In this document: piece by piece, positions 24,621 to 47,164 of the stretch
Layout of the letters: every line of letters begins with the position of its first letter
Numbering within the stretch: the first letter of the stretch is position 1
NCBI GenBank assembly: GCA_050014195.1
Contig: JBEKDT010000009.1
Span: 64,001-128,000 of the forward strand
Direction of reading: 5' to 3'
From: Desulfomonilia bacterium
GTDB taxonomy: Bacteria > Desulfobacterota > Desulfomonilia > UBA1062
Length of the DNA: 64,000 nucleotides
Program-made: the position numbers and the translations under genes
The notes under the pieces: generated by a model
Told to the model about the DNA's origin: nothing
The model's input: only the letters and a program-made list of their open reading frames with translations
Database searches by the model: none

Positions 24621-24945
24621 AAGTTTTAGGTTTTAAGGTTAAAGTTTATATATTTAAGATGCAATTGCAAAACTCACCAAGGTGTCGCCCCCGCGAAAGC
24701 GGGGGTCCAGAAGTTCTTGAAAAAACTGGATTCCCGCTTCCGCGGGAATGACAATCTCAGATTATTGCAATTGGTACATAATTTTAAATTTTTTTAACCA
24801 TGGCGTATCATTCTTTTGAAGATTTGGAGAGATGAACTGAAAAAAGAGATCATAGAAATATCTTCCATGTTGCAATCGCTCATAAGATCCTTAAAGAGCA
24901 CCACCATCGGGAGATCTAAGACTTCAAACTTAAAACCTAAAACTT
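24621..24945. repeat. Segment bounded by a perfect 17-bp inverted repeat built from heptamer units
   Basis: AAGTTTTAGGTTTTAAG (24621-24637) and CTTAAAACCTAAAACTT (24929-24945). Confidence 0.8.
24662..24773. repeat. REP/MITE-like palindromic element
   Basis: CAATTGCAA...TTGCAATTG ends enclosing GTCGCCCCCGCGAAAGCGGGGGTCCAG and CTGGATTCCCGCTTCCGCGGGAATGAC hairpins. Confidence 0.75.
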
Positions 24946-24947
24946 AA
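24800..24947 (+). pseudogene. Internally deleted four-helix-bundle protein (IVS-protein-like) gene relic
   Basis: N-terminus MAYHSFEDLE joined out of frame to C-terminal helix DELKKEIIEISSMLQSLIRSLK; both resemble the ends of this family. Confidence 0.65.
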
Positions 24948-24956
24948 AACTATATA

Positions 24957-26549: not shown

Positions 26550-26622
26550 GAGATATTGCCGGGCCCCGGCTTCTGCTTTATGGTTCAATAAGATCTAATT
26601 TTGCAATAAAAAGGAATATTCC

Positions 26623-27783: not shown

Positions 27784-27905
27784 TATAGGGTAAAATAAAA
27801 AGAAATAATGAGCCATCCATCTATTGCTCATCACCCTGTAATCGGGTATCCAGGAATGTTGAAAAATGTAAGTATTCATGATTGATTCGTGAGGAGGCGT
27901 TTGAC

Positions 27906-29537: not shown

Positions 29538-29618
29538 ATTAAACCAACCCCATTTTTCTTATTCTTAATATACCAAATATTCACTACCCTTTTCTGTAGT
29601 TTTTTGCATATCAATTAA

Positions 29619-29854
29619 GTTGATGAGCTCGTTTTTCTTGATATCAAGGCCACTATCGAAGGTAGGGAGCCGCCATGGTCTTCACCAACATCTATAACCC
29701 AAGGGCGGAAATTTCCAAGATGGACCAGGTCCGCCCGACCCCCGTCAAGAAAGCCGACACCCTGGGGGCCAACTGCACCATTGTCTGTGGTCACACCGTC
29801 GGATTGTGGTATTGCTTATCGGTAAAAATATGCCGGTTTAGTATAAATAAATGA
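29619..29854 (+). pseudogene. Chimeric relic: HisF-like fragment joined to a WbpD-like acetyltransferase fragment
   Basis: 29619-29675 reads [18 protein letters not shown]. From 29675: [43 protein letters not shown], matching [43 protein letters not shown] in the intact gene. Confidence 0.8.
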
Positions 29855-29921
29855 TCACAAATTGACAGGCCTAAATATGCAGGACAGATTATGCCGCGAA
29901 AGATAGAGGTTTATGGGATAG

Positions 29922-31241: not shown

Positions 31242-31339
31242 TATCAACATGTCATCTATTATTTATAGCCTGGTAATTCTACAAATATTTTCATGTTTAC
31301 CTATTATCTAATACACTACTTATAAAAAGGTATTTCTGT

Positions 31340-33295
31340 ATGTGCGGTATTGCGGGAATTTTAAATCTTAATGGCAAACCGGTTGACTTAAAAATACTGG
31401 CCAATATGACTGCAATCATTAAACACCGGGGGCCTGACGGCAATGGGATTATGCTCTTTGATCCGAAGTTCAGCGAAGGCCAAAACGGGATCATAGAATA
31501 TAAAGACCAGATATTGAAACTTGAGGGCACGGAAGATAACCATTCTAATTATAATGTCGGACTCGCCCACGCCCGGTTGAGTATTATTGACCTATCTGAG
31601 CGAGGCCATCAGCCTATGTGCAACAGAGACGAGTCTTTGGGGATTGTGTACAATGGCGAGATATACAACTACCTAGAGATAAAGGCGGAACTGGTTTCAA
31701 AAGGTTATGAATTCAAATCGAAAACTGACACTGAAGTTATTCTATACGCATATCAGGAATGGGGGGTTGACTGCCTTACCAGGTTTAACGGGATGTGGGC
31801 ATTTGCAATCTGGAATCGGCGGGAAAAGAGGTTGTTTTGTGCAAGGGACAGGTTTGGGGTGAAGCCATTTTACTATTATTTGGATGAGCACACTTTCGTT
31901 TTTGCCTCCGAGATAAAGCAAATATTGGAATGTAAAGAATACGAGAGGAACCCGAACGAACCGTTAATTTATGATTATTTGGTAATGGGTTTTGAGGATC
32001 ATACGAGAGAGACTTTTTTTAAGAACATCTATCAACTTAAAGGTGGTGAATATGCAATTCTTGATTTAAATAAGAGGACATTCGAAAAGAAAAGATATTA
32101 TGATTTAAACGGTATTAATAAATTAGTTTGCAAAGAGTCGGACTATTATCTTCGTTTCAGGGAACTATTTACTGACTCTGTCAAACTAAGATTGAGAAGT
32201 GATGTTCCAGTTGGGAGCTGTCTTTCTGGCGGGCTGGATTCATCAGCCGTAGTTTCAATTATCGCAACACTATGGAAAGAGAAAGAGAGGGTTTTATTTA
32301 ATACATTTACTGCGTGCTGGGACGATAAAAAGATAGATGAGAGAAAATATTCAGAAGCAATTGTTGAATCCTCAGGCTTCAGCGGCAACTTTATTTATCC
32401 TTCCTCTGAAGATCTGACAGAGGACTTGGCCAGTCTTCTTTGGCATCAGGAAGAACCCTTTGGAAGCCTTTCAATTTTTGCTCAGTGGTCCGTCATGAAA
32501 GCAGCACAAAAGAAGGGTATAAAAGTTCTTTTAGACGGTCAAGGAGGAGATGAAGTTTTTTGCGGATATGAAAGATATTATGCATATTATCTATCAGCTC
32601 TATTGAAGCAGTTTATGCTTAGGGAATTCATTAATGAGTTTATAAAAGGTGTAGAAAATTCTAAACTAAAATTATCCGGAATGATCTTATATTATATTTA
32701 TTTTAATTGTGTACATGTTCGTGCCCTACGTCATCATATTAAATCATATAGAATATTAAATCCAAATTTTTTCATGAATTATGACATATTAGTTCGTCTT
32801 AAAAATGGCTTTAAAGAAGCTAATGATTTGTCTGAGCTTCAAAGAAACGAAATTCAAGGAGTTCAACTTTCACATCTTCTTAAATATGCTGATAGAAATT
32901 CTATGGCTTTTTCTATTGAAACACGGCTACCATTTCTTGATTATAGATTAGTTGAATTTGCATTATCAATTCCCATGGGATTATTAATCCATGATGGATG
33001 GACTAAAAATATAGTAAGAGAAGGTCTGAAAAGGATAATACCAGATGAAATTAGGAGAAGGAAAGATAAGATTGGGTTTGAAGTTCCACAAGATTTATTT
33101 ATAAAACATATCTTAGAAAATTATTTTAATGATATTAATGAAAATAGCTTGATTAGCACATATTTCAATAAAAAATGGTTATTAAAAGATATAAAAACTA
33201 TAAGTCGAAAAAACCCTATCATATGGAAAACATTATGTCTAGATTTATGGTTCAAAGTATTTTTTGAAAACGCCTATAATAATTTTAATCAATGA
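31340..33295 (+). CDS. asnB: Asparagine synthase-like amidotransferase (uronamide formation likely)
   Basis: MCGIAG, HRGPD, LSGGLDSS, GQGGDE, DRNSMAFSIETRLPFLD. Confidence 0.93.
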   Translation: MCGIAGILNLNGKPVDLKILANMTAIIKHRGPDGNGIMLFDPKFSEGQNGIIEYKDQILKLEGTEDNHSNYNVGLAHARLSIIDLSERGHQPMCNRDESLGIVYNGEIYNYLEIKAELVSKGYEFKSKTDTEVILYAYQEWGVDCLTRFNGMWAFAIWNRREKRLFCARDRFGVKPFYYYLDEHTFVFASEIKQILECKEYERNPNEPLIYDYLVMGFEDHTRETFFKNIYQLKGGEYAILDLNKRTFEKKRYYDLNGINKLVCKESDYYLRFRELFTDSVKLRLRSDVPVGSCLSGGLDSSAVVSIIATLWKEKERVLFNTFTACWDDKKIDERKYSEAIVESSGFSGNFIYPSSEDLTEDLASLLWHQEEPFGSLSIFAQWSVMKAAQKKGIKVLLDGQGGDEVFCGYERYYAYYLSALLKQFMLREFINEFIKGVENSKLKLSGMILYYIYFNCVHVRALRHHIKSYRILNPNFFMNYDILVRLKNGFKEANDLSELQRNEIQGVQLSHLLKYADRNSMAFSIETRLPFLDYRLVEFALSIPMGLLIHDGWTKNIVREGLKRIIPDEIRRRKDKIGFEVPQDLFIKHILENYFNDINENSLISTYFNKKWLLKDIKTISRKNPIIWKTLCLDLWFKVFFENAYNNFNQ

Positions 33296-34470
33296 GTAAT
33301 ATAGATATCAGACATAGAATTGCTTTTATTATACCTCTTTTTATTTATGCAGGTTATTTTAAGTCATCAACATTTGATTTTGCTAGGTGGTATTCAGATC
33401 TTACTTTTTGGTTATTAATTTTTATTATATTAGTTCAATTATCTAAGATAAATTCTAATAAGATTCACTTTCGCAAATTCAATCCGGTCTTTTTCATCTT
33501 CCTGCCAATATCGTTCATGATATTGATTTCTGTTCTATTCGGCGAACTAACATCTAATGGTTTAATAAAAATGAAAGGTTTTATAGTAATATTAATCCCT
33601 ACTGTTCTAGTCAGCTTCTGGGTCATAAAGAATGAAGCTGATCTTAAGTACTTAGGTAATGGAATCATTGCATTGGGGCTTTTTACCAGTGCATATATTT
33701 TATCTAATTCAATATATAAGTCATGGGGAAATGTACAGTATTTGTCCTGCGGCACTATGACATCATTGGGCGGGCTTGTTTCAATTCATAGATTTTTAGT
33801 TGAGATCAAGAAGAGATGGTTTTACTTTTTATCATGTTGTATCTGTTCTATAGGTGTTATAGTAAGCTATGCACGTGGCCAGCAACTTATCTATTCCTTA
33901 ATATTATGTTCCATGTTGACATATTATTTTTGCTTTATCCGAGAGAAAATAAAGAAGAAAGTTATAGTGATATTCTGTCTAATTATATTATCAATACTTA
34001 TACTAATTGTTTACAATACCAAGTTAAGCTTGGATGAGAATTTTCTATATAGATTTGGTGAGAATTATTTTGAAGAAGGATTAGATTTACGATTTATATT
34101 ATTTGAAAATGCTCTGACATTATTCAGACAAAACCCCTTCATCCCGGCTGGAATAGGACAATACTCAGTAGAATTTCAAGGAGAAATAATTAGATATCCA
34201 CATAATATACCCTTAGAATTTGCTGCAGAGTTTGGTTTTATTGGACTTCTTTATTACTGCTTATTAATCATGGGAGTTTTTTATGGTTATTTACGATTTA
34301 GAAAAAACAAAATTATTAGAGAACATCTAATTATATACGTTTTTCTTTTTTTAATATCCTTAAAACAAGGATATATTTATGAGGATAAGGATTTCTGGAC
34401 ATGGTCGGCTTTAGGCTTAGGATTTTTAGGTTGGCATAGAGTAGTTCTTGACAGGTATGGATCCAGATAA
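33292..34470 (+). CDS. wzy: O-antigen polymerase/ligase-family membrane protein
   Basis: Very AT-rich, many TM segments, SYARG, GIG, YPHNIPLE. Confidence 0.75.
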   Translation: MSNIDIRHRIAFIIPLFIYAGYFKSSTFDFARWYSDLTFWLLIFIILVQLSKINSNKIHFRKFNPVFFIFLPISFMILISVLFGELTSNGLIKMKGFIVILIPTVLVSFWVIKNEADLKYLGNGIIALGLFTSAYILSNSIYKSWGNVQYLSCGTMTSLGGLVSIHRFLVEIKKRWFYFLSCCICSIGVIVSYARGQQLIYSLILCSMLTYYFCFIREKIKKKVIVIFCLIILSILILIVYNTKLSLDENFLYRFGENYFEEGLDLRFILFENALTLFRQNPFIPAGIGQYSVEFQGEIIRYPHNIPLEFAAEFGFIGLLYYCLLIMGVFYGYLRFRKNKIIREHLIIYVFLFLISLKQGYIYEDKDFWTWSALGLGFLGWHRVVLDRYGSR

Positions 34471-34542
34471 AAGAAAAAGAAGAAGATCTAACTGTAATAG
34501 GCAGTGTGGTACATCAAGACTAATTTGGCAGATACATTTAAA

Positions 34543-35670
34543 ATGATAGCAACTGCAATCCTAACATCAGCCCACGACATATCTGACACCCGAATTTTTT
34601 ATAAAGAATGCAAAACTCTTGCAGGAGCTGGATACCAGGTCACCTACATTGTACCACATGAACAGGATCATTTTCTTAATGGAGTGTGTATTCATTCTGT
34701 CCCAAAGCCTAAAAACAGATTGGATCGCTTCATTTATACAATTTGGAATGTGTATAAGGCAGCAAAAATCGAAGATGTAGAATGTTATCATTTCCATGAT
34801 CCTGAACTAATACCCATTGGTTTGTTATTGAAGATTAAAGGTAAAAAGGTCATCTATGATGTACATGAAGATGTACCCAAACAGATTCTGAATAAAAATT
34901 GGATTCCTTCTATTCTCAGATCTGTAGTGTCTAAGGTTACAGGTTTTGTTGAACATCTAAGCGCGTTGTTCTTTGATGGGATAATTGCAGCTACACCAGA
35001 TATTGCTAGTAATTTTCCTGAAACAAAAACAATCATTGTTCAAAATTTTCCTATTCAGCACGAATTAACAACATCTCATCCTACGCCATATTGTAAAAGA
35101 TCCCCAATCATTGCATACGTAGGAGGGATATCAGAAATTCGTGGTATTAAGGAGATGATCCGTGCAATGAGCATACTAAAGCCACATTGCGGGGCGTGTA
35201 TACATATAGGTGGCACATTTTACCCATCCAATCTAGAAGAAGAAGTAAAAAATCTAACAGGTTGGGCTCATGTAAAATACATGGGTTGGCTATCCCGTGA
35301 GCAGATTTCACATCTGCTCAATAACGCAAGAATAGGTTTAGTTCTCCTTCATCCGAAAAAAAATTATCTACTAAGCTATCCAATAAAATTGTTTGAATAT
35401 ATGTCAGTGGGAATCCCTGTTATAGCATCTGATTTTCCGCTTTGGAGAGAAATTATTGAAGGCGCAGGTTGTGGTCTTCTGGTTAATCCCCTTGATCCAA
35501 AAGCCATTGCAGATTCAATACTATGGTTGCTCGAACATCCTGAAGAAGCCGAAATCATGGGGAAAAGAGGACAAGAGGCAGTTAGACATCGATATAATTG
35601 GCAGAATGAAGAAATTAAGTTATTAGATTTTTACAGCAAGATCCTAGGTAACATAAATAATTGTATCTGA
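34543..35670 (+). CDS. Glycosyltransferase family 4
   Basis: DTRIFYKE, HFHDPEL, YDVHED, PIKLFEYM. Confidence 0.92.
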   Translation: MIATAILTSAHDISDTRIFYKECKTLAGAGYQVTYIVPHEQDHFLNGVCIHSVPKPKNRLDRFIYTIWNVYKAAKIEDVECYHFHDPELIPIGLLLKIKGKKVIYDVHEDVPKQILNKNWIPSILRSVVSKVTGFVEHLSALFFDGIIAATPDIASNFPETKTIIVQNFPIQHELTTSHPTPYCKRSPIIAYVGGISEIRGIKEMIRAMSILKPHCGACIHIGGTFYPSNLEEEVKNLTGWAHVKYMGWLSREQISHLLNNARIGLVLLHPKKNYLLSYPIKLFEYMSVGIPVIASDFPLWREIIEGAGCGLLVNPLDPKAIADSILWLLEHPEEAEIMGKRGQEAVRHRYNWQNEEIKLLDFYSKILGNINNCI

Positions 35671-35671
35671 A

Positions 35672-36349
35672 ATGTTACTACTTGATTGCGCTGATAAAAG
35701 CATGAGGAGAAAAGATTTGTTTGAAAGGATTCTCATTTTAGCACCACACACGGATGATGGTGAATTTGGTTGTGGTGGAGCGATATCAAAGTTTATCGAT
35801 TTGGGGAAGGAAGTGTATTATGTTGCTTTTTCGGATTGTAAAAAATCCCTTCCTCCGGATATGGCGCCTGATACCCTAGTGAAAGAACTAATGAGCGCAA
35901 CCAAGATACTAGGTGTCCCTCCTTCGAATGTTATCGTAAAAGAATTTGAACTACGGTGCTATGAAAGAGATCGACAAGAGATACTTGAGGAGATTATTAT
36001 CATCGGGAAAGATATTAACCCTGATCTAGTGTTCTTGCCCTCACCAAATGATTTACACCAGGATCATGAGACGATAGCTATGGAAGGTCTCCGCGCCTTC
36101 AAGCTGTCAGCTACAATTCTCGGCTATGAAATGCCTTGGAATAATTTGACATTTAATACTACTTGTTTCATAGGCCTGACAGAACAAAATCTTCAAAAAA
36201 AGGTCGAGGCGCTTCGATGTTACAAGTCTCAAGCTGAAAGATTTTATGCGACAGAGGAATTGGTTCGATCTTTGGCAATCACAAGGGGAACTCAAGTAAA
36301 CACACACTATGCTGAAACCTTTGATGTGCTTAGATGGCTTATAAAATAA
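35672..36349 (+). CDS. PIG-L/LmbE-family de-N-acetylase
   Basis: APHTDDGE and HQDH metal-binding motifs, YKSQ. Confidence 0.9.
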   Translation: MLLLDCADKSMRRKDLFERILILAPHTDDGEFGCGGAISKFIDLGKEVYYVAFSDCKKSLPPDMAPDTLVKELMSATKILGVPPSNVIVKEFELRCYERDRQEILEEIIIIGKDINPDLVFLPSPNDLHQDHETIAMEGLRAFKLSATILGYEMPWNNLTFNTTCFIGLTEQNLQKKVEALRCYKSQAERFYATEELVRSLAITRGTQVNTHYAETFDVLRWLIK

Positions 36350-36389
36350 CAAGAAAAATTAATCCTACTATCCTCGTAGGAATATCCAC

Positions 36390-37718
36390 ATGAAGCACGA
36401 CATTGATGAATTGGAAACACTCACTTATGAGCAGAGCTATAATGGAATAGATAGGGCTCTTCTCATACAGCAGCTGAAGTATGTCGCAGAAAACAGTCTT
36501 TTTTATCTGGAGAAATACGAAGAACATCGTTTAGAAAAAAATGATATCATCGACGTGAATAACTTTGAATTAGTGCCCTTTACTTATAAAGAAGAACTAT
36601 TGAGAGAGCAGGAAAAATATCCACCATTTGGTCGCTTGGCAACAAAGGATAATCAACACCATCTTCGTCGTGTACACATGACTTCAGGTTCAACAGGCAG
36701 ACCTCTGTATGTTGTATTAACTGAGAATGATTTGTTTGCAACTGTTGAAGCAGGACGTCGGGCATTTCTCTGTGCTGGGCTTAATGATGAAGATACGGTT
36801 ATTCACTGTCTGAACTACTGCTTATGGGCTGGAGGGCTGACTGATCACCTCAGTCTTGAGGCTACAGGTGCTACGGTTATCCCCTATGGCGTTGGGAACA
36901 CCAAACAACTTCTTCGGACAATTATTAATCTGAGACCAACAGCCATTTCTTGCACACCATCTTATCTGACAAGGCTGGAGTATATTTTGCGTGAGGAGTT
37001 TCAGTTATCCCCTGCTGCCCTTGGTCTTGAAAAGGCGTTCTTGGGGGGTGAGGGAGGTCTACAGAACCCGTTGGTGCGATCACGTATTGAAGAAACATGG
37101 AAAATGAAAGCAATTGATGCCAACTATGGAATGGCCGATGTCTTGAGTATATTTGGAGCGGAATGTGAGGCTCGAACAGGGTTGCATTTTCATGGGCAGG
37201 GTATCTTATATCTCGAACTCATTGATCCTTCATCTAATAAGAATTTACCAGTTGTAGATGGAGTAGTTGCTGAAATGGTTTTAACGAATCTAAGAAGAGA
37301 AGCTCAGCCTCTTGTGAGATATCGTACCAGAGATCTCATTCAAATTGTGTCAACCAGCCAATGCACATGTGGACGAAAATCATTCCGATTCCTTGTAATG
37401 GGGCGCACAGATGACATGATCACAGTTCGTGGTATTAATGTCTACCCAAATGCAATTGCAAATATCCTAGTGAAGCATCCAGAATGGTTCAGTGGAGAAT
37501 ATGAACTTATTGTGGATACACCTCCCCCAATTGAAATGCCACTCTTGCGGGTTGAATTATCTGCAAGTATTGAGTCAATTAATAATGAATCGCTTAGTTA
37601 TTATTTGATTAAAAAGTGTCATGAAAATCTTAATTTCAGACCCCGTATAGAGTTCATGGCACATGGTCATTTTCCCCGGACTGAAGGTAAGACCAAAAGA
37701 CTTAGGAAGATATACTGA
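36390..37718 (+). CDS. Phenylacetate-CoA ligase-like adenylate-forming enzyme
   Basis: TSGSTGRP, YGMAD, YRTRD, GRTDDM...GINVYP, GKTKR. Confidence 0.9.
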   Translation: MKHDIDELETLTYEQSYNGIDRALLIQQLKYVAENSLFYLEKYEEHRLEKNDIIDVNNFELVPFTYKEELLREQEKYPPFGRLATKDNQHHLRRVHMTSGSTGRPLYVVLTENDLFATVEAGRRAFLCAGLNDEDTVIHCLNYCLWAGGLTDHLSLEATGATVIPYGVGNTKQLLRTIINLRPTAISCTPSYLTRLEYILREEFQLSPAALGLEKAFLGGEGGLQNPLVRSRIEETWKMKAIDANYGMADVLSIFGAECEARTGLHFHGQGILYLELIDPSSNKNLPVVDGVVAEMVLTNLRREAQPLVRYRTRDLIQIVSTSQCTCGRKSFRFLVMGRTDDMITVRGINVYPNAIANILVKHPEWFSGEYELIVDTPPPIEMPLLRVELSASIESINNESLSYYLIKKCHENLNFRPRIEFMAHGHFPRTEGKTKRLRKIY

Positions 37719-37884
37719 ATAAGATATCTTGCCACCTATAATTTAGGGATACTGATGAACAAGCGAACTCATCTATTAAGAGATTTAGTAGGATATCTTC
37801 ATCTGAAAAGATTACGAATTATCCTTCACACTATTTTACCTCAATTAATGTGTATTGATCAAAAGTCATTAGGGGGATATTAAT

Positions 37885-38766
37885 TTGAAAGTAATAACTA
37901 GTATGCACATTGCACAGTTCCTCGGGAAAACTTTACAAGGAGAACCAAACCCGATTTTTAAACCTGCAAACCTAAGCGATTGTGGACCGAATGATATTGT
38001 CTGGGTGAAAAGCTATACACAGGAACGACTTATTTTGCTTGAAAAAAGACAACCAGGATTAGCTATCTGTGATATGAAAACATCAGAAAAAACAACAGTT
38101 CCTACTATTCTATCAGAAAATCCACGGCTTGATTTCATTCGTGTGCTAAACCATTTTTATCTTGAGAAGAGAGAAGCTTGTATACACCCCACTGCAATCA
38201 TTGAGAAGAGCGCAACAGTTGGCAAAGATGTTACCATAGGTGCATATGCCTATATAGGTCATGATGTATTAATAGGTGACGGATGCAACATAGGAACTGG
38301 TGTAGTCATAGAAGGCAAAGTTTGCCTAGGAAATAGGTGCGTTATAAAGTCTAATGCTGCCCTTGGTGGACAGGGATTTGGTTTTGAATATGATGAATAC
38401 GGAAATCTAATTCATTTCCCGCATCTTGGAAGTATTATTACTGAAGATGATGTCTGGATTGGGTCCTGTTCTACAGTAGAAATTGGAACACTTGGAGCTA
38501 CTAGGATTTTTCGTGGTTCAAAAATTGATGATCTGGTTCAAGTGGGACATAATGTCACTGTCGGTCGAAACACGCTAATAATGGCAAACACAGTTCTTTG
38601 TGGTGGTTGCAGTATAGGTGAGAGGTGCTGGATAGCACCGAACAGTGTCATAAAAGAAAAGGTAAACATTGGGGACAATGTTACAGTTGGGCTAGGATCA
38701 GTGGTGCTAAGAGATGTAGAGGATGGAGTTGTAGTAGCAGGAGTTCCGGCAAAACCTCTCCAATAG
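37885..38766 (+). CDS. LpxD-like left-handed beta-helix N-acyltransferase
   Basis: NPRLDF, IHPTA, GFGF, KIDDLVQVGHNV, AGVPAK. Confidence 0.85.
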   Translation: MKVITSMHIAQFLGKTLQGEPNPIFKPANLSDCGPNDIVWVKSYTQERLILLEKRQPGLAICDMKTSEKTTVPTILSENPRLDFIRVLNHFYLEKREACIHPTAIIEKSATVGKDVTIGAYAYIGHDVLIGDGCNIGTGVVIEGKVCLGNRCVIKSNAALGGQGFGFEYDEYGNLIHFPHLGSIITEDDVWIGSCSTVEIGTLGATRIFRGSKIDDLVQVGHNVTVGRNTLIMANTVLCGGCSIGERCWIAPNSVIKEKVNIGDNVTVGLGSVVLRDVEDGVVVAGVPAKPLQ

Positions 38767-38808
38767 AACGTGAAATTAAAGAGTCTGTTTTAAGAGTGGA
38801 GGTTAATA

Positions 38809-39723
38809 ATGTATCGTATAAAAAAGTTCGAGATTAGGGCATCAGAGATAGCCGATTATCTCAATGAACAGCTTGTAGGAAATGATTTCATCATTACAAG
38901 TCCTCATTCCATTAGAACATACAAATCTTCTGAACACTCATCGATGGAAGTCAATAGAAGTCGAAGCCAGATATTGATCATTTCTGATCATCCTGTGCCA
39001 GTAGATTTATGTACAGGCTATATAATTTCACAGAACCCTGATCTTGACTTGGCATATATATTACGCGAATTTTTCTCTACAGCTCCAATTAACCAAATCC
39101 ATTCATCTGCGATGATTTCAGAAGAAGCCCGTATAGGGAGAAATGTAATGGTAGGTGCTCATACTATTATTGGTCCTGATGTTACAATTGGAGATAACAC
39201 AAAAATTTTTCATAATGTTGTAATAAATGGCCTTGTCCATATTGGCAAATTCTGTGTTATCAAAGATGGCGCAGTTATTGGTAGTGAGGGATGGGGTTTC
39301 ATTGACGATGAAGATGGTATTCCCTTTCATCCTCCTCAATTAGGTCTTATCAGTATTGAAGACAGGGTTTGGATAGGTTCGAACTCAACAATTGAACGTG
39401 GCATGATTGAAGAAACAGTGATTCATGCTGATGTAAAAATCGACGACCTTGTTCATGTCGGGGCAGGATCACACTTAGGACAAAAAAGTAAACTCACTGC
39501 AGGTGTTGTAGTAGCTTCTCATGTTACAATAGGGGAAAATGTTTATATTGCACCCAATGCAGTAATTCGGGAAGAGTTGAATATTGATGATGACGTAGTT
39601 ATTGGCATGGGTGCAGTTGTCATTAACAATCTTACTTCTGGCAATAGATATGTAGGCAATCCAGCCCGATTAATCAGAAAGAAGAAAAGGCAGACTGATG
39701 ATGAAAAAGATACAGTTTCCTGA
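38809..39723 (+). CDS. Second LpxD-like left-handed beta-helix protein
   Basis: IHSSA, GSEGWGF, GSNSTIERG, KIDDLVHVGAGS, VGNPAR. Confidence 0.85.
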   Translation: MYRIKKFEIRASEIADYLNEQLVGNDFIITSPHSIRTYKSSEHSSMEVNRSRSQILIISDHPVPVDLCTGYIISQNPDLDLAYILREFFSTAPINQIHSSAMISEEARIGRNVMVGAHTIIGPDVTIGDNTKIFHNVVINGLVHIGKFCVIKDGAVIGSEGWGFIDDEDGIPFHPPQLGLISIEDRVWIGSNSTIERGMIEETVIHADVKIDDLVHVGAGSHLGQKSKLTAGVVVASHVTIGENVYIAPNAVIREELNIDDDVVIGMGAVVINNLTSGNRYVGNPARLIRKKKRQTDDEKDTVS

Positions 39724-40786
39724 AAAGATTACTCCATTTCTTCGTGAAAAACTTGCCCTCTTGGAATCATCTTTTGGGTCAGATTCCAATGAATACAGAG
39801 GGCTTTCTCTTCAATATATTTTGAGCCCTTTAGAAGCAAAGGAAACTATCGAGCAAAATCTCAAGCATTATGATGCAGGTTTGTATCTTAATGAAGCTGA
39901 AGGAGACTTACCTGGAATAGAAAGACTATATAGGAATGTACTCGTTATTGAACCAACCTTGGTATGTCTTGCCCATTGTCGCTACTGCCTTCGGAGCAAC
40001 TACACAAAACATACATTAACAGAGAGGCAATTGATCGATGTAGCGAAGTATTGCGGCAATTCTAGCAATAGAGATATTTTGAACGAAGTTCTTATCACCG
40101 GCGGGGATCCCCTTATCATACCTCAACGTTTGGAAGTTCTTTTAAATGCTCTGATAGACTATGCACCAAATATTAAAACTATCAGGATAGGGACACGTCT
40201 TCCTGGTCAGGATCCAGCACGTATAGATGAAAATGTAATTAGTCTTTTTATTAATAAACCAACTTTAAGGTTTGAATTGGCGACTCAGATCAATCACCCG
40301 GTAGAGTTTTTCCCTGAGGTTGAAGAGGCTTTTCTCAAAATCTCAGATTTAGGAGTAAAGATATATGCGCAGAATGTCCTTCTTAAAGGAGTAAATGACC
40401 AAATTGATGCGTTGGTTGAGTTGTATAATAGGATGCGGGTTAATAATATCGAAGCTCATTATTTATTCCATTGCGTGCCTATGGTTGGAATTCATCATTT
40501 AAGAACTACCATTGCGAAGGCTCTTATACTGATAAAAGATCTTGTTTGTTCTGGAAAAATATCAGGCAGAGTTAAGCCCATGCTTGCAGCTATGACAGAT
40601 ATCGGAAAGATAACCTTCTATGAAGGTGTTATACGTGATCGGAGAGATAATAGGGTTTTGTTGCAAAGTAACTACCAATTTGCTGACCGTATTGCATGGA
40701 ATCCATCATGGCAGCTTCCTGAATCTGCAGGAATAGATGAGCACGGCCTACTACGTGTGTGGTATATTGATGGTGATGACTCCTAA
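39698..40786 (+). CDS. KamA-family radical SAM/PLP aminomutase-like protein
   Basis: CLAHCRYCLR (CxxxCxxC), ITGGDP, IRIGTR, NHP, QNVLLKGVND, HHLRT, SG...GK. Confidence 0.88.
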   Translation: MMKKIQFPEKITPFLREKLALLESSFGSDSNEYRGLSLQYILSPLEAKETIEQNLKHYDAGLYLNEAEGDLPGIERLYRNVLVIEPTLVCLAHCRYCLRSNYTKHTLTERQLIDVAKYCGNSSNRDILNEVLITGGDPLIIPQRLEVLLNALIDYAPNIKTIRIGTRLPGQDPARIDENVISLFINKPTLRFELATQINHPVEFFPEVEEAFLKISDLGVKIYAQNVLLKGVNDQIDALVELYNRMRVNNIEAHYLFHCVPMVGIHHLRTTIAKALILIKDLVCSGKISGRVKPMLAAMTDIGKITFYEGVIRDRRDNRVLLQSNYQFADRIAWNPSWQLPESAGIDEHGLLRVWYIDGDDS

Positions 40787-40805
40787 TATAGCTATGTGAA
40801 ATAAG

Positions 40806-41179
40806 ATGAGAACCTCGGCAAACAAAAAACAACACCATATCTGGATTTTCAACCATTATGCGATTACTCCTGATCTTCCTGGGGGAACCCGTCACTACCA
40901 CATTGCGTATGAACTCGGTCGGAATGGTTATGATGTAACAATATTTGCCATGAATTGGGAGCAGTCACTTATATTTCAGGCAAAGGTGGCGATAACTATC
41001 AAGATCATTTCAAATTTAAGATGGCTGGTATCAACCTGGAAGTAAAGACCTATAAGCCAATACCGTATGACCAGAAAACTGATTTGTTCATGCCAGGACT
41101 CAGCATAATGGATGCATTGTTTAATCTTGGTAAATCTACAATAAATCTAATGAACTATTCCGCAGCAAGCGGCGAATAA
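40806..41179 (+). pseudogene. Chimeric relic: GT4 N-terminus fused out of frame to a WbqC-family C-terminus
   Basis: IWIFNHYAITPDLPGGTRHY...VTIFA (GT4 start); second frame ICHELGAVTYISGKGG..YQD...FMPGLSIMDALFNLG (WbqC-like end). Confidence 0.75.
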
Positions 41180-41201
41180 TGAAACTCATAGAGATTGAAT
41201 T

Positions 41202-42503
41202 ATGAGAATTTGGTTAGTTTCTATAGGTGAACCAATACCAACAAGCGCTGACAGTAATTCTCGACTGCTTCGGACAGGATATTTTGCTAATTTACTGTCA
41301 CAATATGGCAATGATGTAATCTGGTGGACTTCTGCATTTGATCACTTTAGAAAAACACAGCTTTGTACTACGGATACTGATTTGGTTATTAATCAACATC
41401 TTACTATCAGGCTTTTGTGTGGCTCTGGATACAAAAGTCATGTGTCGCTAAGACGGGTCTGGGATCACTGGAAAATCTCTAGGAAGTTTTCTTCGGCCAT
41501 AAAGAAGCAGACTATGCTTCCGGATATAATTTTAGCTGCATTACCTACGATAGATCTCTGTTATGAGTCAGTTGTGTTCGGGAATCAGCAGGGAATACCC
41601 GTAGTTCTTGATATGCGAGACATGTGGCCAGATATTTTTGTAGATCTCGCTCCTGATTTCTTAAGACCATTAACACGACGCCTCTTAAGTTATCAGTTTC
41701 GAAGAGCTGGATATGCATGCGAAAAAGCTACAGCTATTATTGGGATAACAGATGAATTTGTTGCATGGGGTTTAAAACGGGGACAACGATGTAAGCAAGA
41801 ATTCGACAAATCATTCCCCTTTGGATATTCGATTCAGGCCATAACAAGAGAATCTGAAGAGAATGCAATTATTGAACTCAATCATCGAGGGATCCATTTT
41901 GATGACGATAACCTATATGCCCTTTATATTGGGTCGCTCAGTCGCAATGCGAACTTGGGTGATATCATATCTGCAAGCAGAATTCTTTATGAGCAAAACT
42001 CAAAATGGAAGTTTATTGTATGTGGCGATGGTGATTGTGTTGATCTAATATTAAATCATATTAGTAAATATCCAAATGTAAAATACGGGGGTTGGGTAGA
42101 TAGAACAATGATTCATAGTCTAATGCGACGATGTCATGTTGGTTTAAATCAACTTCCTGATCGATACGATTTTCTTGCCACCATTAATAACAAAGCCATT
42201 GAGTATATGAGCGCGGGTCTCCCTATCATTTCAAGTCCGGATCGGGGTGTTCTATGTGAGCTTCTCAAGATGCATGAGTGCGGGATAAGTTATCCTTCTG
42301 GTGATGCTGGGGCTCTGGCTTCGACGCTTACACGGTTTTATGATGACCAGGGTATGCTAAGGAAAATGTCGCAGAACGCCATGCAGCTGTTCCAAGAACG
42401 TTTTATTGCAGAAAAGATTTATACAGAGATGATGGAGCATTTGGTGATGATAGCGGAAAATCAAAATCAATCTGTTAGAACAGGTGGTCAGGATTGGGCA
42501 TGA
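41202..42503 (+). CDS. Glycosyltransferase family 4
   Basis: DMRDMWPD, NKAIEYMSAGLP. Confidence 0.9.
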   Translation: MRIWLVSIGEPIPTSADSNSRLLRTGYFANLLSQYGNDVIWWTSAFDHFRKTQLCTTDTDLVINQHLTIRLLCGSGYKSHVSLRRVWDHWKISRKFSSAIKKQTMLPDIILAALPTIDLCYESVVFGNQQGIPVVLDMRDMWPDIFVDLAPDFLRPLTRRLLSYQFRRAGYACEKATAIIGITDEFVAWGLKRGQRCKQEFDKSFPFGYSIQAITRESEENAIIELNHRGIHFDDDNLYALYIGSLSRNANLGDIISASRILYEQNSKWKFIVCGDGDCVDLILNHISKYPNVKYGGWVDRTMIHSLMRRCHVGLNQLPDRYDFLATINNKAIEYMSAGLPIISSPDRGVLCELLKMHECGISYPSGDAGALASTLTRFYDDQGMLRKMSQNAMQLFQERFIAEKIYTEMMEHLVMIAENQNQSVRTGGQDWA

Positions 42504-42525
42504 CATATTTTCGGGATAGATATCT

Positions 42526-43419
42526 ATGAACAGACTGGATGACATTATGATTGACGATAAAGTACAGCAGAAAATTGAGTATCGGCCATCTCTGGCCGGG
42601 TGCTTAGCACGGATTTTCATACCCCTGTTGCAAGCAGTACTCCCACCAAAAGCATACCGTGTGATCTATGATGGACTCTATGAGAGTTACAAGCAGATTC
42701 TCAGATCGAGCTATGTAGTTAGGGTTATCGCAGCAAGACTCTTTAGCGATCAGGAGCAGCAGTTAAAGACATCACTCACTCATCAGTTACTGCCCTACAC
42801 TATGGGGGGATGGAAGGCGCTCGAGAACGCATTCAAAGTGACTGCCCTTGTCGAACAAAAAAAGATTGAAGGTGCTTTGGTTGAGTGCGGCGTTGCAAAG
42901 GGTGGTACTGCTGCGATGATGGCCTTAACAAATCGAAAGCTTGGCACAATTATGCGGCCTAAGTGGTTTTTCGACTCCTACGAAGGCCTACCTGAACCGA
43001 CTGCTGAAGACTATGAAGGTGGGAAACAGGGCCACTTTATTCGTCCTCTTACAAAAGGGGCCTGTCTGGGGACCATTGAGCAAGTTAGTGATTTGATGTT
43101 CAATAAATTGCACTTGCCCAAGAATGAGGTTCATTTGGTGAAGGGCTGGTTCCAAGACACGGTGCCTGTTTATCGTGAGAGGATCGGGCCAATTGCCATG
43201 CTGCGTTTGGATGGTGACTGGTATGAGTCTACCAAGATACCGCTGGAAAATCTTTTTGATCAAATTAGTATTGGCGGGTTTGTAATCATTGATGATTACG
43301 CAACCTGTTTTGGTTCTCGTAAGGCGGTGGACGAGTTTCGGGCTGAGCGCAGTATCACCTCGTCGCTTCGGCCTGATGGGCGTGGAGGCGCCTGGTTCGA
43401 GAAGCATGAGGCGAAGTAA
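42526..43419 (+). CDS. TylF/MycF-family O-methyltransferase
   Basis: VECGVAKGG, FDSYEGLP, KGWFQDT, LRLDGDWYEST, IDDY. Confidence 0.9.
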   Translation: MNRLDDIMIDDKVQQKIEYRPSLAGCLARIFIPLLQAVLPPKAYRVIYDGLYESYKQILRSSYVVRVIAARLFSDQEQQLKTSLTHQLLPYTMGGWKALENAFKVTALVEQKKIEGALVECGVAKGGTAAMMALTNRKLGTIMRPKWFFDSYEGLPEPTAEDYEGGKQGHFIRPLTKGACLGTIEQVSDLMFNKLHLPKNEVHLVKGWFQDTVPVYRERIGPIAMLRLDGDWYESTKIPLENLFDQISIGGFVIIDDYATCFGSRKAVDEFRAERSITSSLRPDGRGGAWFEKHEAK

Positions 43420-44075
43420 TGAAAACATCGCCTGAAACACCGATCGCTTTTCCCGAAAGGTGGATCTATGTATTGTTGAAGCGAGTAATGGATGTAGTCG
43501 GTGCCATGGCGGGGATATTAGTCTTGGCGCCTTTGCTTATCTTGATTGCTGTCGTCTTAAAATTAACATCACAAGGACCGGTTTTTTACCGTGGTGTGCG
43601 CGCCGGATTGAACGGAAAGCCATTTCGTATCTTCAAATTCAGAACAATGTTAGAGAATGCCGAGTCTTTGGGCGGGCCCACTACAAGTACTAACGATCAA
43701 AGAGTAACGCGTATTGGAGCCTTGCTTCGTCGAACCAAGCTTGATGAGTTCCCACAGCTCCTGAATGTCTTGGCTGGTGATATGAGCCTCGTGGGGCCTC
43801 GGCCGGAAGTGTTGGAATATACCTCACAATACAAAGGTGAGGAGAAATATATTCTCAGCATGCGTCCCGGGATAACTGATTATGCATCAATTGAATTTGC
43901 CGATCTTGATGATCTGGTGGGAAGCACAGACCCTGACAAATACTTCCGTGAACATATCCTACCTCGTAAGAATGCATTGAGAGTCAAATATGTGAAAGAA
44001 TGGTCATTGGGTTCTGATTTTGGCATTCTTTGGGCTACTTTTCTCAGGGTGATGAAGAGAATTGCTGCGCAATGA
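43419..44075 (+). CDS. Monotopic phosphoglycosyltransferase (initiating sugar transferase)
   Basis: [35 protein letters not shown]. Confidence 0.92.
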
Positions 44076-45016
44076 GTATCTTGGAGAGAATGCATCTCGG
44101 TCGAACCGGGCTTTATATCAGTCGCCTCGGAATGGGCTGTTGGGCTATTGGGGGTCATGGTTGGGGCCAGGTGAGGGATGAGGATTCTATCCGAGCCGTC
44201 CAGGGCGCATTAGAGAATGGAGTCACATTCTTTGATACAGCAGATGCCTATGGGCTTGGAAAGTCTGAGACATTACTTGCTAAGGTATTAGGTTCGTCCA
44301 TTACTCAAGTTGTCATCGCAAGTAAAGGGGGCGTTCGATGGAATGAAAGTGGAAATATATGGTCCGATAGTTCACCTGCCTACCTGAGACTGGCTGTAGA
44401 AAATAGTTTAAGACGATTGAAGCTTGATTGTATTCCCCTTTACTATATCCATAAACCTGATGAGGTAACGCCTATACAGGAGAGTGTTGCTGCCCTTGAG
44501 CGCATGTGTGAAGAAGGTAAGATAGGCGCCATAGGCGTCGCAAATTTCTCTGCCGATCAATTGCTGCAGGCATTGCAGGTTGCTCTGGTAGCAGCGGTTC
44601 AGGTACGTTTAAATATTTTTGATAGAGATACGAGTAAAGAGTTATTGGGCATTTGCAGAGAGCATGGCATAACTCTTGTTGCTTGGGGCGCACTTGCGGA
44701 TGGATTGTTAACCGGTAAATTTTCAACCAATACAAAGTTCTCTGAAGATGACCACCGTAACAGAATGCCTGAGTTTACAGGGAATAATTTTTTAAAGTAC
44801 GACAAATGTCTAAAATTACTTAAGCAGTTGGCTGCCGATAGGGGACGGAAAGTTGGTCAACTTGCACTTCGGTGGGTGCTGGATTTTGAGCCTTTTACAT
44901 GTTCGCTGTTTGGTGCAAAAACAGATATTCAGGTAATGGATAATTTGGGAGCAGATGGGTGGAGCTTAACAAAAGAAGAGCTTGCAGCTATCGATTCCAT
45001 AGTGGCTGAACTTTGA
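44072..45016 (+). CDS. Aldo/keto reductase
   Basis: GMGCWAIGG, FDTADAYG, ASKGG, SLRRLK, YYIHKPD. Confidence 0.92.
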   Translation: MSILERMHLGRTGLYISRLGMGCWAIGGHGWGQVRDEDSIRAVQGALENGVTFFDTADAYGLGKSETLLAKVLGSSITQVVIASKGGVRWNESGNIWSDSSPAYLRLAVENSLRRLKLDCIPLYYIHKPDEVTPIQESVAALERMCEEGKIGAIGVANFSADQLLQALQVALVAAVQVRLNIFDRDTSKELLGICREHGITLVAWGALADGLLTGKFSTNTKFSEDDHRNRMPEFTGNNFLKYDKCLKLLKQLAADRGRKVGQLALRWVLDFEPFTCSLFGAKTDIQVMDNLGADGWSLTKEELAAIDSIVAEL

Positions 45017-45023
45017 AGATGAT

Positions 45024-46001
45024 ATGACTTACTCAATTGATATTTTGTGTGATTTGTATAAAACAATGTTTCGTATCCGCTCTTTCGAAGAGAGCCTGGT
45101 GGAACCCATCCTAAACAGCGAGATCCGTACACCCTGCCATCTTTACAGCGGTCAGGAGGCCGTTGCGGTCGGTCTCTGTACGGCCCTCTCCAAGGATGAT
45201 TACATCTTTGGTAATCATCGCTCACATGGCCATTTCCTGGCCAAGGGGGGCTCCCTGAAGGCTATGGCGGCTGAGATTTATTGCCGTGAGGCAGGTTGCT
45301 CCAGGGGCCGTGGGGGCTCTATGCACCTGATCGATCCGGATGTGGGTATGCTGGGATCGGCACCGATAGTGGCCGGGACTATCTCCCTGGCACTTGGGGC
45401 GGCGCTGGCCTCTTCCATTCGAAAAGACGGTCGTGTGACAGTGTGTTTTTTCGGAGACGGGGCCACAGGCGAAGGCGTCCTTTACGAATCCCTGAACTTT
45501 GCCGCCTTGAAAAAACTCCCTTTGATATTTGCCTGTGAAAATAATCTTTATGCTACGCATATGCCTATCCGGGAATGCCGGGTAAACCTGCCGATCAGCA
45601 GGATCGCAGAGCCCTTCGGCATAGAGATTCATACGGTGGATGGTAACGATGTGTTGCAGGTCCGTGATGAAGGTCAACATGCAGTGGAAACCTGCCGCAT
45701 TGGTAATGGACCCGTATTTATGGAGTTCATGACCTATCGATACCGAGGTCATGTAGGCCCGGATGACAACATACAGGGTAATCATACAGATATAAGGCCC
45801 AGGGAAGAAGTCGCCATATGGATGGAAAAGGATCCCATCAAGAAATTCGAACGATACCTGACAGATCAAGGAATGATGGATGAGAATGAGCTGCAGGATA
45901 TCAGGAACGAGGTTGCTGATGAGATACGGGATGCAAAGGATTTCGCAATAAATAGCCCACGCCCGTCGGGAGAGGATCTGACGAAATATGTCTTCGCATA
46001 G
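45024..46001 (+). CDS. TPP-dependent 2-oxoacid dehydrogenase E1 alpha-like subunit
   Basis: HLYSGQEA, HRSHGH, GSMH, GDGA...ENN, YRYRGH. Confidence 0.92.
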   Translation: MTYSIDILCDLYKTMFRIRSFEESLVEPILNSEIRTPCHLYSGQEAVAVGLCTALSKDDYIFGNHRSHGHFLAKGGSLKAMAAEIYCREAGCSRGRGGSMHLIDPDVGMLGSAPIVAGTISLALGAALASSIRKDGRVTVCFFGDGATGEGVLYESLNFAALKKLPLIFACENNLYATHMPIRECRVNLPISRIAEPFGIEIHTVDGNDVLQVRDEGQHAVETCRIGNGPVFMEFMTYRYRGHVGPDDNIQGNHTDIRPREEVAIWMEKDPIKKFERYLTDQGMMDENELQDIRNEVADEIRDAKDFAINSPRPSGEDLTKYVFA

Positions 46002-46971
46002 GACACTCCAGTACGGCCTGGCCATTAACGAGGCGCTCCACCAGATGATGGAGATGGACAGCTCCGTTTTTCTCATCGGGCAGGGGGTGGAAAGCCCCTG
46101 GTATGTGGGCAATACTGCACAGGGGCTTCTGGAGAGGTTCGGGAAAGGACGGGTCATTGACACACCAGTGTCCGAGAATGCCATTACAGGGGCAGCCGTA
46201 GGGGCAGCCATCGCAGGTATGAAACCAGTGGTGGTTCATCCCAGGGTGGATTTCATGATGTACGCCATGGACCCAATCATAAACGAGGCAGCTAACTGGT
46301 TTTATATGAACGGCGGCAGGGCTTGTGTACCGGTCGTTTTTTGGGGTATCATAAACAGAGGTGGAGAACAGGCAGCCCAACATTCACAGGCTATTCATGC
46401 GTTGTTTGCTCATTGTCCAGGTCTCAAGGTCGTAATGCCGTCAACCCCTTATGATGCAAAGGGATTACTCATATCAGCTGTAAGGGATATGAACCCAGTT
46501 GTTTATATTGATGATAGGTGGCTGTATAATCTGGAGGATGTTGTTCCGGAAGAAATGTATGAAGTCCCCATTGGTCAAGCTATAGTTAGAAAAAAAGGTA
46601 AGGATGTAACAATCGCTGCGGTCTCTTATATGGCGCATACTGCTCTGAAAGCATCTGAGAAACTCCTAGATCTTGGTATTGATTGTGAATTGATCGATCT
46701 GCGGAGTATAAAGCCATTGGATAAGAATACCCTATTACAATCAGTTCGAAAAACAGGCAGATTAGTAATTGCTGATGTAGGATGGAAATCATTCGGAATT
46801 AGCGCTGAGATAGCTGCTATTGTTTGTGAGGGGGCCTTCAAAGAATTAAAAAGTCCGGTTGTTCGAGTTGCCCTACCCGATACACCAGCCCCTGCGAGTA
46901 GATCGCTAGAGGGTCAATATTTTCCTAAAGAAGATGACATAATAAAGGCTGTTCAAGGTATTATTAATTGA
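45988..46971 (+). CDS. 2-oxoacid dehydrogenase E1 beta-like subunit
   Basis: DTPVSE, AQHSQ, PYDAKGLL, IDLRSIKPLD. Confidence 0.92.
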   Translation: MSSHRTLQYGLAINEALHQMMEMDSSVFLIGQGVESPWYVGNTAQGLLERFGKGRVIDTPVSENAITGAAVGAAIAGMKPVVVHPRVDFMMYAMDPIINEAANWFYMNGGRACVPVVFWGIINRGGEQAAQHSQAIHALFAHCPGLKVVMPSTPYDAKGLLISAVRDMNPVVYIDDRWLYNLEDVVPEEMYEVPIGQAIVRKKGKDVTIAAVSYMAHTALKASEKLLDLGIDCELIDLRSIKPLDKNTLLQSVRKTGRLVIADVGWKSFGISAEIAAIVCEGAFKELKSPVVRVALPDTPAPASRSLEGQYFPKEDDIIKAVQGIIN

Positions 46972-47164
46972 TAACATGTGTCTATAAATAATCATGATGT
47001 TCAATATATGTGTTATATCTTTTTTATTATTACAATATTTTGAATAAAGGGGTATATGTTTGCCTAACAAGACCCCTACCTAAGCTCCAAGATAAAGCAT
47101 CATTGAAGTGGTGATTTTGAGATATTGTGCGCTCAAATGTTTCATAACGAGGTAAAAATTTAAA

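Follow-up and report, generated by a model that had tools for sequence, protein, structure and literature searches.

Introduction

Three substrates only, lysine, glutamate and arginine, are to our knowledge established for aminomutases of the KamA type, and we know of no gene for a 2,3-aminomutase acting on an uncharged aliphatic amino acid; no natural alanine or aliphatic 2,3-aminomutase turned up in the literature either, searched as open-access text. In the lysine 2,3-aminomutase (LAM) of Clostridium subterminale (structure 2A5H), we take Arg134 to bind the substrate carboxylate, Asp293 and Asp330 to bind the epsilon-amine of lysine, and Lys337 to bind pyridoxal phosphate (PLP). The present work concerns a KamA-like gene at positions 39698-40786 of a stretch of 64,000 nucleotides (nt), hereafter the window, from a Desulfomonilia bacterium (GenBank assembly GCA_050014195.1, contig JBEKDT010000009.1, positions 64,001 to 128,000 of the forward strand). 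Its product carries hydrophobic residues, or a gap, where LAM has the two aspartates, and the gene follows an adenylate-forming ligase and two LpxD-like N-acyltransferases within a surface-polysaccharide cluster. We propose, with a probability that we put at roughly 0.5, that the enzyme acts as a 2,3-aminomutase on an amino acid other than lysine, probably an uncharged one; the resulting beta-amino acid would then be activated and coupled through nitrogen to an amino sugar in the O-antigen or exopolysaccharide (EPS). The enzyme type is known; what is new is the signature at the specificity positions, the depth of the branch and the association with a glycan cassette, all described below.

Results and Discussion

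Identity and predicted fold of the KamA-like protein

The open reading frame (ORF), which encodes 362 residues, is a real, conserved gene. Its start overlaps the stop of the upstream LpxD-like gene by 26 nt, and the protein collection holds an identical copy of 361 residues that starts one codon later (P0001). In that collection 693 homologues were found at E <= 1e-5, with a top identity of 78% (P0028, from a Geomonas strain, has 72%), and among 1.84 billion representatives the relatives numbered 47 at E <= 1e-30 and 1317 at E <= 1e-10. Among solved structures, LAM (2A5H) was the sole one matched by sequence, with an E-value of 1.1e-26 for the single sequence and 3e-35 for the family profile. 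It was also the closest fold: the AlphaFold2 (AF2) model, built on a family alignment of 27 sequences (mean predicted local distance difference test, pLDDT, 90.8), retrieved 2a5h_B and 2a5h_A first in Foldseek (E 3.6e-22, TMq 0.69), and the next folds, viperin and MoaA, followed from E 4.5e-07, about 15 orders of magnitude behind in E-value. Identity to 2A5H was about 22% across the structural alignment. A preliminary description of this DNA, made from the letters, had placed a KamA homologue at 39698-40786; the ORF lies exactly there, and both sequence and fold lead to 2A5H.

Family models gave a more distant picture. Pfam recognised the generic Radical_SAM domain only (37 bits), and no LAM_C domain (PF12544). 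All six NCBIfam models of the KamA type matched the protein, each well under its cut-off: the KamA family model TIGR00238 was the best match (131.1 bits, cut-off 199.2), followed by AblA_like_2 (130 vs 396), EpmB (TIGR03821, 121.3 vs 369.3), the lysine 2,3-aminomutase equivalog (TIGR03820, 112.8 vs 525.4), glutamate 2,3-aminomutase (TIGR04368, 112.4 vs 650) and arginine 2,3-aminomutase (TIGR04468, 112.1 vs 600). Several database copies of the homologues bear the automatic name "lysine 2,3-aminomutase" (JGI labels), a label that is probably wrong for genes of this family. The Atlas search returned only generic cluster names ("radical SAM" and "putative lysine 2,3-aminomutase"), no characterised member of the family turned up in the open-access literature, and NCBIfam holds no model for it.

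Replacement of the two specificity aspartates

The cluster, Arg and PLP-lysine motifs of LAM were retained. A HMMER alignment of the single sequence to 2A5H set C90, C94 and C97 opposite C125, C129 and C132, R99 opposite R134, and V260 opposite D293. The family profile paired K304 with K337, left V329 and D330 of LAM as an insertion without counterpart, and put D301 opposite G334; hhalign, run between the family and 20 canonical KamA proteins, placed the gap in the same way, and MAFFT L-INS-i set M299 opposite D330. The GGDP motif and Q225 are kept as well. In none of these four alignments does an acidic residue stand at the Asp293 or the Asp330 position. The hairpin loop before the PLP lysine is two residues shorter than in LAM; in the AF2 model strands 295-300 and 303-306 form this hairpin, with D301-I302 as its turn. 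In a hairpin of this kind M299 and K304 would face each other across the strands on the same side, which would make M299 the natural spatial counterpart of D330.

Conservation followed the same lines throughout the family. In 134 rows retrieved by homology (the query, P0001-P0120 and 13 more distant representatives), position 260 is V in 73, I in 58, L in two and C in one, position 299 is M in 132 and L in two, and position 301 is D in 128, E in five and Q in one; R99 and K304 are present in every row. A further 34 loci came from species-representative genomes, found by an alignment-based scan and the patterns AAMTDIGK and Y[AS]QNVLL[KR]G, where a scan of the genome contigs with the single protein sequence had given no loci. 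They show V25/I7/L1/C1 at position 260, M in all 34 at position 299 and D31/A2/E1 at position 301; because they were fished with the AAMTDIGK pattern, their loop-motif counts are partly circular and are no independent evidence. Across the 168 family rows, C90, C94, C97, R99 and K304 are kept without exception, and position 260 is always V, I, L or C.

The preliminary description, aligned by eye, thus saw the main features correctly. The CxxxCxxC motif with its following Arg, the Lys of the LAAMTDIGK loop (K304, equated with K337 by profile and hhalign) and the change of Asp293 to Val in YLFHCV all hold, the last in four alignments and with no acidic residue in the 134 rows. Its change of Asp330 to Met in a shorter loop is reproduced by MAFFT, whereas profile and hhalign give a gap, and the short loop is not peculiar to this family (see below). 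It was also right that neither Asp position is acidic. The Asp of TDIGK (D301), which it named as a possible acidic residue of the amine-binding site, lies opposite G334 in the profile alignment and is nearly invariant.

What these replacements mean can be judged against enzymes of known substrate. At the two specificity positions, canonical KamA has D/D (the KamA of the same genome, L035, TIGR00238 354 bits), Escherichia coli EpmB D/E, two glutamate 2,3-aminomutases K/N (696 and 684 bits, above the TIGR04368 cut-off) and two arginine 2,3-aminomutases D/T (652 and 650 bits, above that of TIGR04468). Since the two positions track the charge of the substrate side chain in these references, and read V (or I) and M here, a non-lysine and probably uncharged substrate is suggested; this is our main argument, and a non-lysine substrate would be the most economical reading of the replaced positions. 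That the substrate is an uncharged aliphatic amino acid is a narrower and more doubtful claim, which we put forward as a possibility. The neutral or hydrophobic substrate of the preliminary description fares accordingly: V260 and M299 support its non-lysine part, while alanine, 2-aminobutyrate and leucine were guesses.

A plain LAM, its aspartates absent through an artefact of alignment, would agree with the automatic names on database copies, and is in our view very improbable. Four independent alignments concur on the replaced aspartates, the protein scores far below the TIGR03820 cut-off and has no LAM_C domain, the family lies on the opposite side of a well-supported branch (see below), and the same genome holds, on another contig (C21), a canonical KamA with both aspartates and a VVDAPGGGGK loop. 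The four methods, the sub-threshold scores and the tree lead us to reject an ordinary LAM misread through a bad by-eye alignment.

Asp301 leads to a different reading: the aminomutase would have a basic substrate (lysine, ornithine, 2,4-diaminobutyrate or arginine), and this residue of the short hairpin would take the place of LAM Asp330. Position 301 is D or E in 133 of the 134 rows and lies in the AF2 model at the turn of the very hairpin that bears Lys304; arginine 2,3-aminomutase is itself a short-loop enzyme with a cationic substrate, and a LysE-type exporter adjoins the gene in one locus (L021). We nevertheless consider a basic substrate unlikely. The alignments place Asp301 opposite G334 of the loop and not opposite D330, and position 301 is Ala in two actinomycete members and Gln in one relative that keep V260/M299. 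In arginine 2,3-aminomutase the third residue before the PLP lysine is Arg or Lys, so a side chain at this place would not be expected to line the distal pocket. Finally, D293, which is kept in LAM, EpmB and arginine aminomutase, is V, I, L or C in every member of the family.

Place in the KamA superfamily

The position of the family was clearly separate from that of the characterised enzymes. In an unrooted FastTree of 127 core sequences, which remained after representatives shorter than 300 residues or without a CxxxCxxC match had been dropped, the family (17 rows) stands on one side of a branch with support 100, and the family together with 20-21 other rows is split by starred branches (support 95-96) from canonical KamA, EpmB and the glutamate and arginine aminomutases. 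A quick IQ-TREE run, also unrooted, on 63 hand-picked rows (the long-branched P0167 and P0135 being left out) gave 100 for the family, 97 for the family with 15 short-loop rows and one more, and 97 for the branch with the six references opposite. A short hairpin, xxTx(I/V/L)GK, occurs in the neighbouring KamA-like groups too, which likewise lack an Asp at the 293 position, and ten representatives of these groups reached no equivalog cut-off in NCBIfam. The short loop is shared by arginine 2,3-aminomutases above the TIGR04468 cut-off (VLTTRIGK) and by many uncharacterised KamA-like groups. Judged by these sequences, the gene falls within a large part of the KamA superfamily that is uncharacterised, and is no near relative of LAM. 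The preliminary description had proposed a phylogeny with KamA, EpmB, Eam and BlsG as a check; in the trees the family is no close variant of LAM, and all four characterised types fall on the opposite side.

Beside the family, five proteins of 658-829 residues (P0175, P0177, P0184, P0202 and P0212) carry a short-loop KamA-like core in mid-protein, at about 200-480 in the 800-residue forms. They form a tight, uncharacterised clade (support 100), and Pfam found no further domain in P0175.

A conserved cassette with a ligase and an N-acyltransferase

In the window, a PIG-L gene, a PaaK-like ligase gene and two LpxD-like genes stand directly upstream of the KamA-like gene and in the same direction (Table 1). 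Much of this arrangement recurs elsewhere. Among the 34 loci, a PaaK-like ligase lies near the KamA-like gene in 23, an LpxD-like gene in 21, all of which also have the ligase, and a PIG-L gene in eight; the usual order is ligase, LpxD-like, KamA-like, the last two 13-45 nt apart. These loci come from delta-proteobacterial/Desulfobacterota, Planctomycetota, Omnitrophica, Bacteroidota, Calditrichales, Patescibacteria and Bacillota metagenome-assembled genomes (MAGs). When the 181 neighbouring ORFs of 19 ligase-bearing loci were clustered, only the ligase (17 of 19 loci) and the LpxD-like protein (13 of 19) were widely common. Among 120 ORFs lying up to about 5 kb from the gene in 16 loci, two ORFs of more than 1100 residues being removed, Pfam counted Hexapep 15, AMP-binding_C_2 15, GNAT 6, Glycos_transf_1 5 and Polysacc_deac_1 4, other glycan enzymes being fewer.

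Table 1. The KamA-like gene, its active-site motifs and surrounding features of the window (nt positions within the window)
Feature	Positions	Strand	Basis
KamA-like radical SAM (S-adenosylmethionine) / PLP enzyme gene	39698..40786	+	ORF, 362 residues
CLAHCRYCLR: [4Fe-4S] cysteines C90, C94, C97 and Arg99 (= LAM Arg134)	39965..39994	+	Translation, alignment
YLFHCVPM	40460..40483	+	Direct translation
Val260, opposite LAM Asp293	40475..40477	+	Four alignments
MTDIGK hairpin: Met299, turn Asp301, Lys304 (= LAM Lys337)	40592..40609	+	Translation, alignments, AF2 strands
LpxD-like N-acyltransferase 2	38809..39723	+	Hexapep 95 bits; TIGR01853 175.2 bits vs 242.5 cut-off
LpxD-like N-acyltransferase 1 (paralogue)	37885..38766	+	Hexapep 96 bits; weak LpxD N-terminal domain match; PRK00892 277 bits; TIGR01853 211.6 vs 242.5
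PaaK-like adenylate-forming ligase	36390..37718	+	AMP-binding, AMP-binding_C_2; PaaK models 211-222 bits vs cut-offs 646-700
PIG-L/LmbE-type de-N-acetylase	35672..36349	+	PF02585 57 bits
Surface-polysaccharide cluster	23466..49111	+	Pfam; low G+C
Gene remnants 3' of the KamA-like gene	40806..41179	+	79-residue ORF and WbqC C-terminal fragment

Some loci give a hint of the acceptor. In a Desulfobacteraceae MAG (L007, 9034-10750) genes for a PglD-like acetyltransferase and a NeuB-family synthase come directly after the cassette; in a Bacillota MAG (L024, 9068-10721) a PglD-like gene follows likewise, and the next ORF clusters with the NeuB of L007 (by blastp only); and in L005 a PseB/PglF-type dehydratase lies about 4.5 kb from the cassette. 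These neighbours suggest diamino-sugar or nonulosonic-acid pathways as the source of the acceptor.

Where the PaaK-like ligase is absent, other carboxylate-activating enzymes appear to stand in for it. Streptomyces loci have ATP-grasp and L-amino-acid-ligase genes with an MFS exporter and no LpxD-like gene, a Lachnospiraceae glycan locus has PIG-L with ATP-grasp, and a Micromonospora locus (L029) has a KAS III-like protein with an AMP-binding enzyme; ATP-grasp neighbours occur in four of the 34 loci in all. Six loci are without a carboxylate-activating neighbour (L009, L021, L027, L028, L030 and L033). One of these, in a Cupriavidus MAG (L021, 6796-11158), is set among a Rieske ring-hydroxylating oxygenase, the LysE-type exporter and an asparaginase, with no ligase or acyltransferase; this different context may be catabolic or export-related.

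In L035 (374-2709 on contig C21), the canonical KamA of the own genome overlaps a gene of the D-Ala-D-Ala-ligase type of ATP-grasp (PF07478), and the same pair is fused in P0172 and P0183. It looks like a second, separate system of a mutase plus a ligase.

Natural fusions and a predicted complex

The link between the KamA-like and LpxD-like proteins goes beyond gene order. The representative search returned a natural LpxD-like::KamA-like fusion (P0121, 651 residues, 58% identical) and two ATP-grasp::KamA-like fusions (P0126 and P0127). Complex prediction of the KamA-like protein with LpxD-like protein 2 gave ipSAE values of 0.55, 0.68 and 0.61 in three runs, against 0.00 for the best of three controls. 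The prediction passed, at a mark reached by 58 of 80 solved complexes and by two of 110 mismatched pairs, a benchmark that is rough here as custom alignments were used. At least 84% of the contacts are common to the runs, and the partner has a pLDDT of at least 86. The predicted interface involves residues 5-19, 83-96, 111-112 and 129-130 of the LpxD-like N-terminal domain, and residues 87-91, 104-109, 140-154 and 177-188 of the KamA-like protein, around the cluster loop and the GGDPL motif. These models support a putative binding of the KamA-like protein to LpxD-like protein 2.

Such closeness of the two proteins can be read in another way, namely that the KamA-like enzyme handles no free amino acid and, bound to its LpxD-like partner, rearranges an aminoacyl group or amine on a uridine diphosphate (UDP)-sugar, or performs another PLP/radical reaction (epimerisation, deamination or C-C chemistry). 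Both the modelled complex, with its interface around the cluster loop, and the natural fusion would suit this, as would the branching of the family apart from the characterised aminomutases and the arginines of the HRYPDR motif, which are out of register (see below). By contrast, the same V260/M299/K304 signature occurs with ATP-grasp ligases, including the L-amino-acid-ligase type with its MFS exporter, where there is no LpxD-like gene, and beside the KAS III protein and AMP-binding enzyme; the common denominator of these settings is activation of a free carboxylate, and Arg99, at the carboxylate-binding position, is invariant. We therefore hold a sugar-linked substrate or another reaction to be improbable, and rank it after the basic substrate.

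Proposed function

The O-antigen/EPS cluster, taken with the ligase/N-acyltransferase cassette, points to decoration of a sugar with a beta-aminoacyl group rather than to metabolism of a free beta-amino acid. The preliminary description had identified the gene and missed both this setting and the cassette. From a mechanistic point of view, a free alpha-amino acid would be bound through Arg99 and would form an aldimine after release of the cofactor from Lys304, its side chain lying in a pocket lined by Val260 and Met299 in place of the two LAM aspartates; the KamA-like enzyme would turn it into its beta isomer. The PaaK-like ligase would then activate the carboxylate of this beta-amino acid as acyl-AMP or acyl-coenzyme A (acyl-CoA), and the LpxD-like left-handed beta-helix N-acyltransferase would transfer the acyl group to a free amine of a UDP-amino sugar, an amine supplied by the cluster aminotransferase or uncovered by the PIG-L deacetylase. 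The O-antigen or EPS repeat unit would in the end carry a beta-aminoacyl N-acyl group, whose new beta-amine may be capped by the second LpxD-like paralogue here and by GNATs elsewhere. Motifs, conservation, cassette and fusion are seen directly, as are the predicted fold and complex; reaction, step order, acyl donor, acceptor and substrate class are proposed from them.

Several points weigh against this proposal. Asp301, acidic in 133 of 134 rows, lies in the turn of the hairpin, three positions ahead of the PLP lysine, and could thus hold a cationic side chain. Both HRYPDR arginines, common to the four reference types, align to Leu77 and Val81, with Arg76 and Arg79 adjacent, so that cofactor or substrate binding may differ. 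Since all characterised aminomutases stand on the far side of a starred branch, the family may perform chemistry other than a 2,3-amino shift. The interface of the modelled complex, which sets the LpxD-like N-terminal domain close to the cluster loop and GGDPL, would also fit a sugar-linked substrate, and glycan genes are only moderately frequent away from close relatives (Glycos_transf_1 in five and Polysacc_synt in three of the 120 neighbouring ORFs). Open-access text, when searched, yielded no glycan bearing a beta-aminoacyl substituent, and the scheme itself is built from sequences and predicted structures.

Taking these lines together, we tentatively join them in one more specific picture, which is correspondingly less probable than the non-lysine aminomutase itself: a 2,3-aminomutase of the aliphatic kind (alanine, 2-aminobutyrate, valine, leucine or methionine type), complexed with its own N-acyltransferase, would place a new beta-aminoacyl group on amino sugars of surface glycans. 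The acceptors could possibly be bacillosamine-type or nonulosonic-acid precursors, and relatives of the enzyme may feed ATP-grasp-made peptides in actinomycetes.

The surface-polysaccharide cluster of the window

The cluster around the cassette comprises a DegT aminotransferase, a GFO/IDH/MocA-hexapeptide fusion, Wzz, a UDP-sugar dehydrogenase, a flippase (Wzx), an AsnB-like amidotransferase, a Wzy-type polymerase, two GT4 glycosyltransferases, a TylF-like methyltransferase, a small Bac_transf priming transferase, an aldo-keto reductase (AKR), E1 alpha and beta subunits and a PglF-like dehydratase. Its G+C content is 0.31-0.40 at 32-42 kb (0.31-0.42 across 30001-42000) vs 0.45-0.55 in the flanks, low values that are typical of an exchanged serotype-specific block. 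That one of the LpxD-like genes is the LpxD of lipid A was also considered and rejected: contig C1 of the genome carries a better candidate, with 365 bits, and both LpxD-like neighbours fall below the cut-off.

Behind the KamA-like gene, a carrier protein was sought in the small-ORF listing of 40700-41250, which held gene remnants only, the remaining gaps being too short. One remnant, the 79-residue ORF, resembles a GT4 N-terminus by eye and has no Pfam match; the other covers positions 154-216 of the 218 of the WbqC profile (PF08889, E 2.1e-15). The gap from the KamA-like gene to the next glycosyltransferase gene amounts to 416 nt here, and the two genes abut in locus L001. Identity to L001 is 62-73% upstream and 87% downstream, a step that has the look of a recombination joint bordering the cassette.

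Two further groups of genes were noted. The AKR and the thiamine diphosphate (ThDP)-dependent E1 alpha/beta genes (PF00676; Transket_pyr and Transketolase_C) occupy 44030-46971, between the priming transferase and the PglF-like dehydratase, with no E2 or E3 nearby, and may serve the building of a branched or acylated sugar. At 24957-26549 a GFO/IDH/MocA oxidoreductase and a hexapeptide acetyltransferase are joined in a single ORF; genes for DegT and the UDP-sugar dehydrogenase lie nearby, and the set resembles the route to 2,3-diacetamido uronic acids.

Significance

With both specificity-tracking positions hydrophobic in hundreds of sequences, the family offers a clean, testable candidate for a fourth class of aminomutase, possibly acting on neutral amino acids, which, if true, would be of interest for beta-amino-acid biocatalysis. 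The cassette predicts a new N-acyl decoration of bacterial surface sugars and provides a three-gene marker with which to find it. The adjoining set of short-loop KamA-like groups is large and wholly uncharacterised.

Comparison with known systems

The cassette follows a logic already familiar from EpmB/EpmA and AblA/AblB, where the product of a KamA-type mutase is attached or modified by a dedicated partner; these systems differ in their substrate, lysine, in their partners, which are a paralogue of lysyl-tRNA synthetase (LysRS) or GNAT enzymes, and in their targets, EF-P or a free osmolyte. EpmB itself has D and E at the specificity positions in E. coli, where the KamA-like protein has V and M or a gap. 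The proposed partner shares with LpxD its hexapeptide repeats and a weak N-terminal domain, and stays below the LpxD equivalog cut-off. PglD and AntD are left-handed beta-helix sugar N-acyltransferases with unusual acyl donors, and no precedent for a beta-aminoacyl donor in such enzymes was found in the open-access literature.

Among the aminomutases, the LAM of C. subterminale has in common with the KamA-like protein the CxxxCxxC motif, the following Arg, GGDP, Q225 and the PLP lysine; it differs in Asp293, which is Val here, in Asp330, which is deleted or Met, in a hairpin two residues longer, in the LAM_C/Zn-site region, which the KamA-like protein does not have, and in its N- and C-terminal parts. 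Arginine 2,3-aminomutase, of the BlsG type, has the same short hairpin, VLTT(R/K)IGK vs AAMTDIGK, yet keeps the equivalent of Asp293 (YLYHCD), which the KamA-like protein does not, and lies on the opposite side of the starred branch. Glutamate 2,3-aminomutase has the long loop and residues at both positions other than V and M; with K and N in place of the aspartates, it nevertheless sets the precedent for a change at these two positions that goes together with a change in the amino acid accepted.

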